UHGV virus genome: UHGV-0176705 | Source: a virus | Length of the DNA stretch: 30,191 nt | Reading direction: 5' to 3' (one strand) | Shown here: piece after piece, positions 25,279 to 25,704 of the stretch | Position numbering within the stretch: position 1 is the first letter of the stretch | Layout of the letters: each line of letters opens with the position of its first letter | Notes under the pieces: generated by a model | The model's database searches: none | Seen by the model: the letters and a program-made list of their open reading frames with translations, nothing else | What the model was told of the DNA's origin: nothing | Position numbers and translations under genes: made by a program

Positions 25279-25383
25279 ATGACACCTAAAGCAGCAAATA
25301 TTGCCGGAATTATTCTTGCATTATCGGCAATGATCGGGGCAATTGGTTTTGCGGTTGCAGCGATAGCATATGTTTGTAGATAA
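25279..25383 (+). CDS. Possible small hydrophobic peptide (34 aa)
   Basis: ATG at 25279 four nt after a GGGGGG run; MTPKAANIAGIILALSAMIGAIGFAVAAIAYVCR; below the track cutoff. Confidence 0.25.
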   Translation: MTPKAANIAGIILALSAMIGAIGFAVAAIAYVCR

Positions 25384-25521
25384 GACAGAAAATCCGGCGA
25401 ATTTCTGCCTTATCCGGGCGGTGGCTTTTGCCATTAAGTGGGTGGCGGTTGGCATCGCCGTGTCTCCGATACTGTATGGGCTGGCAAAATTGATTGTTGC
25501 TCTGAAATCGCGAGTGGTGAT

Positions 25522-25704
25522 ATGACGCGAAAACACTGGACACACAGAATGCCGCGAACGGCGGCGAAATGGGCACTGGTAGCGATACTGGTGCCTTTTT
25601 TATTGGTGGGGTGCGTCAGCCTGGATAAGGCGCGCCAGCTTTTCGATACGGCTTCTCAGGTCTGCGAAATTGTCGACGGTGTTCGGCAGTGTTTGCAGAG
25701 CTGA
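25522..25704 (+). CDS. Small lipoprotein (putative; o-spanin or Bor/entericidin-like candidate)
   Basis: Signal peptide with lipobox AKWALVAILVPFLLVGC; mature part about 30 aa with 3 Cys; alternative start at 25549. Confidence 0.4.
   Translation: MTRKHWTHRMPRTAAKWALVAILVPFLLVGCVSLDKARQLFDTASQVCEIVDGVRQCLQS

Follow-up and report, generated by a model that had tools for sequence, protein, structure and literature searches.

A lipoprotein gene in the Rz/Rz1 position of phiP27-type lysis cassettes, a candidate stand-alone outer-membrane disruptor

The window analysed here, a 30,191-nucleotide (nt) stretch of the virus genome UHGV-0176705, is the DNA of a lambdoid, phiP27-like prophage, as judged from its gene content and from profile searches, and our subject is what follows its endolysin gene: a short run of small open reading frames (ORFs) closed by the gene for a lipoprotein precursor of 60 amino acids (aa), called LIP below. 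This stretch is best explained as the downstream end of a late lysis cassette of the phiP27 type, in the order holin, holin, endolysin, variable insert and LIP, and comparison with related prophages makes LIP a candidate outer-membrane disruptor occupying the position that Rz/Rz1 spanin genes hold in other cassettes. The features of the cassette, with the matches or folding values behind them, are these:

23845-24237, plus strand: holin-like gene 1, the first gene of the cassette, 130 aa, multi-pass membrane protein (Phage_holin_8, E = 1.2e-22; phrog_198, holin, E = 8e-43)
24227-24505, plus strand: holin-like gene 2, 92 aa, three transmembrane segments (Phage_holin_3_7, E = 1.1e-22; phrog_217, holin, E = 1.4e-38)
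24507-25052, plus strand: endolysin, 181 aa, without a signal sequence (Glyco_hydro_108, E = 5e-26, and PG_binding_3, E = 1e-25)
~25142-25194, plus strand: hairpin between an A-run and a U-run, with the look of an intrinsic terminator (-23.4 kcal/mol, z = -3.46, 0 of 200 shuffles as stable)
25230-25289, plus strand: out-of-frame N-terminal remnant of ORF-A, 19 codons (alignment of 19 copies)
25279-25383, plus strand: ORF-A, 34 aa, almost wholly one transmembrane helix (phrog_12997, E = 7e-5)
25370-25525, plus strand: ORF-B, 51 aa, C-terminal transmembrane segment (phrog_1115, E = 1.9e-18)
25522-25704, plus strand: LIP, 60-aa lipoprotein precursor, lipobox LLVGC, Cys31 (phrog_7528, E = 1.1e-37, residues 1-59)
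25571-25606, plus strand: terminator-like hairpin and T-run inside the signal-peptide codons of LIP (-19.2 kcal/mol, z = -2.8)

A sequence-only reading of positions 25279 to 25704 had described a terminator-like hairpin after the endolysin gene, a 34-aa hydrophobic ORF with a good G-rich ribosome site, and a small lipoprotein with the lipobox LLVGC, in place of a recognisable Rz/Rz1 pair. The hairpin and the lipoprotein are indeed there, and no Rz/Rz1-like gene was found in the lysis cassette of the window. An internal Met at 25549 would yield a lipoprotein of 51 aa; the 60-aa form is favoured because its N-terminal MxRKHWTHR is conserved across the family. The hydrophobic ORF (ORF-A) is likewise present, although its supposed ribosome site is a run of six Gs, one more than in 18 relatives. 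That reading saw only two ORFs after the terminator and overlooked ORF-B, and its statement that no genes are embedded or overlapping is half right: none lies within another, but ORF-A and ORF-B have 14 nt in common, and ORF-B runs into the LIP start codon at ATGA. All three genes lie on the same strand downstream of the hairpin. Pfam and NCBIfam returned no match for any of them, and the PHROG families they match are all of unknown function. Chance ORFs are ruled out for LIP, which matches phrog_7528 and 156 protein clusters, and for ORF-B, which matches 88 clusters.

To place LIP in its wider context we compared its relatives in 4 loci from reference genomes and 80 from IMG/VR, to which phiP27 and three E. 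coli prophages were added. Wherever the upstream flank is in the sequence, LIP lies on the same strand as, and downstream of, two holin genes and an endolysin gene, the endolysin being either an M15 peptidase or a GH108 enzyme. Both the endolysin gene and LIP could be placed in 85 loci, and in 36 of these the endolysin stop codon is followed by LIP at a distance of 0-15 nt, with no ORF between the two. Homologues from other lambdoid prophages that are only 37-49% identical to LIP of the window also follow directly on an endolysin gene (GH108, M15 or without a Pfam match), here preceded by holins of a third family, Phage_holin_3_1. Two diverged loci have a Q antiterminator gene called just upstream, and at two diverged loci the called endolysin and LIP genes overlap by 4 nt. 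In these comparisons the endolysin gene is always followed next by LIP, which shares its strand and lies downstream of a Q antiterminator gene. No conserved membrane protein with a periplasmic domain was found either before or after LIP among the loci compared, and the holins themselves were rejected as partners, as LIP keeps its place behind three holin families. The gene occurs in the Stx2e phage phiP27 and in the Stx2k phage phiSTEC1575, and the holins and GH108 endolysin of such cassettes recur in LT-II prophages.

The comparisons also show that LIP holds the position of Rz/Rz1 and that an intact LIP never stands beside those genes. Within 6 kb of an intact LIP we found no lambda-type Rz/Rz1 in any of the LIP loci compared. 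The substitution is seen in an IMG/VR contig (L242, IMGVR_UViG_2529292883_000004, positions 4273-5109), where a 145-aa Rz with an embedded Rz1 follows the stop codon of the M15 endolysin gene by 15 nt; the holins and M15 endolysin of this contig are those of LIP cassettes, and Rz begins exactly at the LIP slot. Of 80 more loci, selected only by their holin gene, 77 were informative and 72 of these carried LIP. The only LIP copies that do lie beside Rz/Rz1, in Stx phage GER2 and in 12 IMG/VR contigs, all share the same three in-frame stops. In GER2 (L174, MG710528, positions 3501-3668; also L176-L187) this unannotated pseudogene lies ~770 nt downstream of Rz/Rz1. An independent survey of Stx phages found Rz in 277 of 279 phages and a metallopeptidase endolysin in just two, both in cluster C (PMC8136144). 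Scanning the whole phiP27 genome and the window for lipoboxes returned LIP and an unrelated 275-aa SPFH lipoprotein only, so that LIP is the sole small lipobox ORF in both. A further IMG/VR contig (L274, IMGVR_UViG_2778261246_000010, ~3170-4010) holds the remnants of a second cassette, an R-like lysozyme gene and the first 20 Rz codons, which border on a holin gene that has lost its N-terminal part; an intact holin-M15-LIP set follows just downstream.

The LIP family is small and, as our searches show, confined to phages of the Enterobacterales. The family comprises 156 clusters at 90% identity, and an HMMER profile search of the whole library, with 1.84 billion representatives, returned 22 clusters at 50% identity, all of this same family and with no link to a known one. 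Organisms named in the records are Escherichia, Salmonella, Citrobacter, Cronobacter, Yersinia and Lelliottia. Across 24 diverse members the lipobox Cys and two further Cys (C48 and C57) are invariant, and the resulting spacing, C-x16-C-x8/9-C, together with the full-length profile match places LIP in the PHROG 7528/phiP27 family. Its signal peptide has a long basic n-region. The mature part in the window has 30 residues and no proline, is predicted to form a moderately amphipathic helix (hydrophobic moment 0.53) and carries a net charge of -1, within a range of -1 to +3 across members. Position +2 after the lipidated Cys is Val in the window and Val, Ala, Thr, Ser, Gly or Glu in the family, never Asp, and sorting to the outer membrane is therefore predicted. 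No hydrophobic segment follows Cys31 before the protein ends at residue 60, and because it has no C-terminal membrane anchor LIP is not a unimolecular spanin. Compared with Rz1, hhalign gave a probability of 1.6% and aligned the signal peptide alone; judged at the profile level, LIP is not homologous to Rz1. Searches of Pfam, NCBIfam and the PDB returned nothing meaningful: LIP of the window has no Pfam match at E<=1, and one of the 24 members gave a sub-threshold match to Lysis_col (E = 0.072). The earlier suggestion of a Bor- or entericidin-like protein thus finds no sequence support in Pfam, and neither does membership of the colicin-lysis family.

Conservation within LIP is uneven. Mean pairwise identity is 0.69 in the signal peptide and 0.45 in the mature part, and the signal peptide has the higher value in 256 of 276 pairs. 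The intragenic hairpin at 25571-25606 corresponds to codons 17-28, which encode the hydrophobic core of the signal peptide, and most of the diverged homologues keep it. Across the alignment, 93.6% of cells are paired and three double-sided changes occur, values equalled by 31-110 of 500 shuffles, so that the covariation is not significant. Synonymous variation is 0.044 in codons 17-28 and ~0.08 elsewhere, a hint of lower variation to which sequences so closely related lend little weight. The constraint on the signal peptide may lie with the peptide or with the RNA. Two LIP copies (L227 and L269) are frameshifted in the intragenic T-run, with GEMGTGSDTGAFF ahead of the lipobox; this wrong frame is also that of the phiP27 gene L32.

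The LIP gene itself is not new, as the family has already been catalogued computationally as the phiP27 "o-spanin". In a survey of spanins, phiP27 is listed as having a two-component spanin of the "separated" type, each subunit of which is the only member of its family, with the i-spanin at 20348-20542, the o-spanin at 20706-20861 and a combined periplasmic length of 62 residues, the shortest in the survey (Kongari et al. 2018; PMC6139136). The listed o-spanin is LIP read from its internal Met, and LIP of the window, 93% identical to the phiP27 lipoprotein over 60 aa, is the best candidate for the outer-membrane step of lysis. That label, however, is purely computational and rests on position and lipobox only. 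The listed i-spanin is a 64-aa ORF with a TTG start that lies antisense to an unannotated 90-aa ORF on the minus strand. In one related locus (L042) this minus-strand ORF is intact, aligns over its full length at 46% protein identity, and faces an "i-spanin" ORF cut to 36 aa; among the LIP loci compared, phiP27 and this locus are the only two with the segment at all. Since it is antisense to a conserved ORF, broken in the related locus and absent from the other LIP loci, the i-spanin call looks spurious at the sequence level. The RefSeq record of phiP27 (NC_003356; L001/L089) has a gene, L32 (20630-20785), in the wrong frame across the LIP start, and the LIP gene is unannotated in two phage records.

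If LIP were nevertheless the o-spanin of a real two-component spanin, its partner would have to be ORF-B, ORF-A or an unrecognised inner-membrane protein of phage or host. Besides the published listing of phiP27, two observations speak for such a pair: the ATGA overlap between ORF-B and LIP, and the two periplasmic Cys of LIP, as such residues are common in spanin subunits. The overlap, however, is peculiar to the window. The usual stop of ORF-B precedes the LIP start codon by nine bases, and here it has changed from TGA to CGA, which adds 4 codons and produces the ATGA. The insert that contains these genes is absent from many LIP cassettes. Loci without the 0-15 nt gap have inserts of 247-1067 nt, most of them headed by the same hairpin that opens the variable insert between endolysin and LIP in the window at 25142-25194, a hairpin that also heads inserts in Stx-type R-Rz cassettes. 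Their contents vary and include ORF-A, several forms of ORF-B, a 44-aa ORF-C, a 66-79-aa ORF (o79) and larger genes; that of phiP27 includes the 90-aa gene on the opposite strand. ORF-A and ORF-B are missing from the 36 of 85 loci in which nothing separates endolysin and LIP, loci that also have no membrane ORF after LIP, and they occur beside Rz/Rz1 in Stx-type phages; the 34-aa peptide and the lipoprotein that had been put forward together as possible unusual spanins are therefore not a pair.

The reach of these small genes was clearest in 80 loci fetched by ORF-B alone. In 56 of them the order is a lysozyme R of the signal-anchor-release (SAR) type, then ORF-A, ORF-B, ORF-C and o79 in some combination, then Rz and Rz1; 22 have two holins, endolysin, small ORFs and LIP, and 2 are truncated. 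ORF-A itself was found in 12 loci between lysozyme R and a canonical Rz/Rz1. ORF-A and ORF-B are thereby shown to belong to a mosaic set of small membrane genes that sits between the endolysin and the outer-membrane gene in LIP-type and Rz/Rz1-type cassettes alike. As ORF-A, ORF-B, ORF-C and o79 stand beside a complete canonical Rz/Rz1, they are not spanin subunits. Topology agrees with this. ORF-A and ORF-B have essentially no residues in the periplasm outside the membrane, and without a periplasmic domain they cannot be i-spanins. ORF-B in its full form has 60 aa in the alignment, a basic N-terminal stretch of 29 residues (which ORF-B of the window lacks) followed by the transmembrane segment, and the basic N-terminus leads to a predicted N-in topology. 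It is this C-terminal segment (RAVAFAIKWVAVGIAVSP.LYG.AKL) that accounts for the matches to PHROG 1115, 3246 and 4493 (phrog_1115, phrog_3246 and phrog_4493, E = 1e-18 to 1e-12). ORF-B was also considered as a type I (N-out) i-spanin and rejected, given its strongly basic N-terminus and its co-occurrence with Rz/Rz1. Taken with the antisense and broken state of the phiP27 "i-spanin" ORF, these observations leave a two-component spanin with LIP as its outer subunit quite improbable in our estimation.

The 34-aa ORF-A has its own explanation. The run of six Gs at 25269-25274 has five bases in all 18 related copies in the alignment of 19, and in those copies ORF-A encodes 50 aa from a start 16 codons upstream, equivalent to the ATG at 25230 of the window, behind a GGAG site. 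As the extra G shifts the frame relative to the 18 copies, ORF-A of the window appears to be a frameshift-truncated or restarted form of the 50-aa protein. The additional base may be genuine or may reflect a sequencing error in the homopolymer. Variation among the copies amounts to one non-synonymous and one synonymous change, too little to test for selection; the 50-aa form is nonetheless nearly unchanged in 18 other copies from two cassette types, which suggests that the ORF-A family is probably functional. A toxin-like peptide had also been proposed here, and ORF-A is very hydrophobic, rich in small-xxx-small motifs and faintly similar to a holin family (phrog_526, E = 0.064), as might be expected of a membrane-toxic peptide of the type I toxin or holin kind that acts alone; the loss of the normal start through the +1 G would suit a functionless frameshifted remnant in the window. 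Against these alternatives stand the near-invariance of the 50-aa form in both cassette types and the fact that we found no evidence of an antisense RNA or a promoter, and we consider either of them very unlikely. ORF-A is an accessory membrane peptide.

A different possibility is that LIP has nothing to do with lysis and is an envelope moron, similar to Bor, Cor or Llp and serving serum resistance, receptor masking or superinfection exclusion, so that phiP27-type phages would simply lack an outer-membrane disruptor. The stretch from endolysin to terminase is clearly prone to insertion, some cassettes have no LIP, the LIP relic of GER2 lies among other accessory genes, and no spanin can be identified in ~13% of the phages that infect Gram-negative bacteria (PMC6139136). 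The arrangement of the gene nevertheless argues otherwise. Scans of the plus strand predicted no sigma-70 promoter upstream of LIP or ORF-A, and although such a scan is a weak test, the moron architecture that had been suggested is rejected on this ground; in the 36 loci with a gap of 0-15 nt there is no room for a promoter at all, and the two diverged loci with overlapping endolysin and LIP genes have no gap. The adjacency survives exchange of both endolysin and holin families, Rz/Rz1 replaces LIP in precisely its own place, and no intact LIP stands beside Rz/Rz1. No Pfam family, Bor and entericidin included, matches the protein, and the one sub-threshold match is to Lysis_col. We therefore regard a moron as unlikely, if less so than a two-component spanin. 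As an observation in its own right, the insertion hot spot between endolysin and terminase contains small membrane ORFs, KilA-N/Ant-like genes, HNH genes, LT-IIb toxin genes and a minus-strand gene.

The absence of a conserved partner, the fixed terminal place of the gene and its exchange with Rz/Rz1 together make LIP a candidate stand-alone outer-membrane disruptor. That LIP disrupts the outer membrane without a periplasm-spanning partner, in place of the spanin step, is the likeliest of these readings and to our minds an evenly balanced proposition. LIP would be transcribed with the Q-dependent late genes, exported by the Sec pathway, lipidated at Cys31 and cleaved by signal peptidase II, and the mature lipoprotein would then be delivered to the outer membrane, into its inner leaflet. 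After destruction of the cell wall by holin and endolysin, this amphipathic, disulfide-capable peptide of 30 residues might weaken or rupture the outer membrane, and it would do so without a phage-encoded inner-membrane partner, because none is conserved and because 30 residues cannot bridge the periplasm. As a helix the mature part would measure ~4.5 nm by our estimate and it has no partner domain to add to this, which falls short of the bridging length of a two-component spanin. It could act by insertion of the amphipathic helix, through disulfide-linked oligomers, or by activating a host factor such as the outer-membrane phospholipase, which colicin release proteins are known to activate. 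ORF-A and ORF-B would be accessory membrane peptides outside this core mechanism, and a role for them in modulating the timing of lysis is a guess.

Several observations weigh against this proposal. Four of the 77 informative contigs chosen by their holin, all of one lineage, have neither LIP nor Rz/Rz1, and prophage SerU-LTIIb (L092, KU052038, positions 4397-6368) carries eltIIbA and eltIIbB directly after a homologous GH108 endolysin gene and has no LIP, so that LIP may be dispensable. The LIP pseudogenes beside Rz/Rz1 all belong to one lineage and therefore represent a single evolutionary event; moreover, the GER2 pseudogene lies in a moron-rich stretch before the terminase genes, and its decay would equally fit that of a non-essential accessory gene. 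In the window, the LIP ribosome site is weak, and one terminator-like hairpin stands before the insert and another inside LIP. An AlphaFold2 model built on the 24-sequence alignment gave one long helix of low confidence (predicted local distance difference test score, pLDDT, 64; predicted template modelling score, pTM, 0.26) and is uninformative. Finally, our literature searches found no experimental work on any member of the LIP family.

Other parts of the window agree with a lambdoid prophage, with further landmarks including a DNA methylase gene, a tRNA-Arg gene, the lysis cassette and the terminase genes. Three features outside the cassette were placed as follows:

4172-5443, minus strand: integrase gene
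19677-20060: Q antiterminator gene
20253-21350, minus strand: full-length general porin moron, directly after the Q antiterminator gene (Porin_1, E = 1e-154)

The porin is presumably akin to the Lc/NmpC-type phage porin morons, which it recalls. About 175 nt downstream of LIP lies an 81-aa ORF (25878-26123, plus strand; phrog_2571) that some of the related prophages have conserved. In the early region, the SPFH/Band_7 lipoprotein of 275 aa (9756-10583, minus strand) has an overlapping 62-aa membrane ORF just upstream (10580-10768, minus strand), and phiP27 has the same SPFH pair, as L05 and an unannotated ORF at 3304-3492.

What is new here is thus that LIP has no conserved partner, that it is the fixed terminal gene across several holin and endolysin families, and that it swaps cleanly with Rz/Rz1. 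To our knowledge the disruptin of phage phiKT is the only alternative to spanins to have been described, and we tentatively suggest, as a possibility that we rate below the replacement of the spanin step as such, that LIP may represent a third type of protein by which phages disrupt the outer membrane, beside spanins and the cationic disruptin: a stand-alone, lipid-anchored amphipathic peptide of 30 residues, acting from the inner leaflet of that membrane with no link to the inner membrane. Were this so, the phiP27 "two-component spanin" in the database would be a misassignment, and the conserved LIP signal peptide might contribute to function as in colicin release proteins, whose signal peptide is itself functional. 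In E. coli, the LIP family lends itself to a clean test of how phages of Gram-negative bacteria breach the outer membrane without spanins. It is accessible in many prophages of E. coli, Salmonella, Citrobacter and Yersinia, and natural controls are at hand in the Rz/Rz1 swap at the same position and in variants with and without the small membrane peptides. A self-sufficient, 30-residue lipopeptide that breaks the outer membrane would, if real, be relevant to toxin release from these prophages and to engineered lysis systems. In the meantime, the present analysis corrects the annotation of the phiP27 entry in SpaninDB and of several records, among them the wrong-frame gene L32 of phiP27.

Among known systems, LIP resembles an o-spanin subunit in having a lipobox and no Asp at +2, and departs from one in its lack of a partner, of bridging length and of homology to Rz1. 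LIP may also be compared with the colicin lysis proteins and entericidin B, which are likewise tiny lipoproteins with a mature part of ~28-35 aa and permeabilise the envelope alone; unlike them, LIP has two extra Cys and is found in phage lysis cassettes instead of colicin operons. Compared with the lambda morons Bor and Cor, it has no Pfam match, lies on the strand of the late genes and follows the endolysin gene at a gap of 14 nt in relatives. Phage T1 gp11, like LIP, is encoded by one gene in the spanin position and starts with a lipoprotein signal, but this u-spanin is anchored in the inner membrane by a C-terminal transmembrane domain and so spans the periplasm, whereas LIP ends 29 residues after the lipidated Cys. 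The phiKT gp28 disruptin is a small cationic amphipathic helix proposed to break the outer membrane in a spanin-less phage (bioRxiv 10.1101/515445). It provides a precedent for disruption of the outer membrane without spanning the periplasm. LIP differs from it in being lipid-anchored and in its net charge of -1 in the window, and the disruptin is not known to have a lipoprotein signal. For ORF-A and ORF-B, a precedent for small membrane peptides as accessory lysis factors is LambdaSo Lcc6, a 65-aa phage protein with a single transmembrane segment that affects lysis at the holin step (bioRxiv 10.1101/2024.01.23.576932). The likeness is by description only, and Lcc6 differs from both in that its transmembrane segment is N-terminal and its gene lies far from the lysis genes. 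With Rz/Rz1 themselves the contrast is one of structure: LIP has no embedded or overlapping inner-membrane partner, and its mature part is 30 aa long, helical by prediction and free of proline, whereas that of Rz1 has 40 aa, 10 of them prolines. Yet LIP shares with Rz/Rz1 the slot directly after the endolysin, a 60-aa precursor like that of Rz1, a lipobox of the outer-membrane type and periplasmic Cys, and the two interchange in otherwise identical cassettes.

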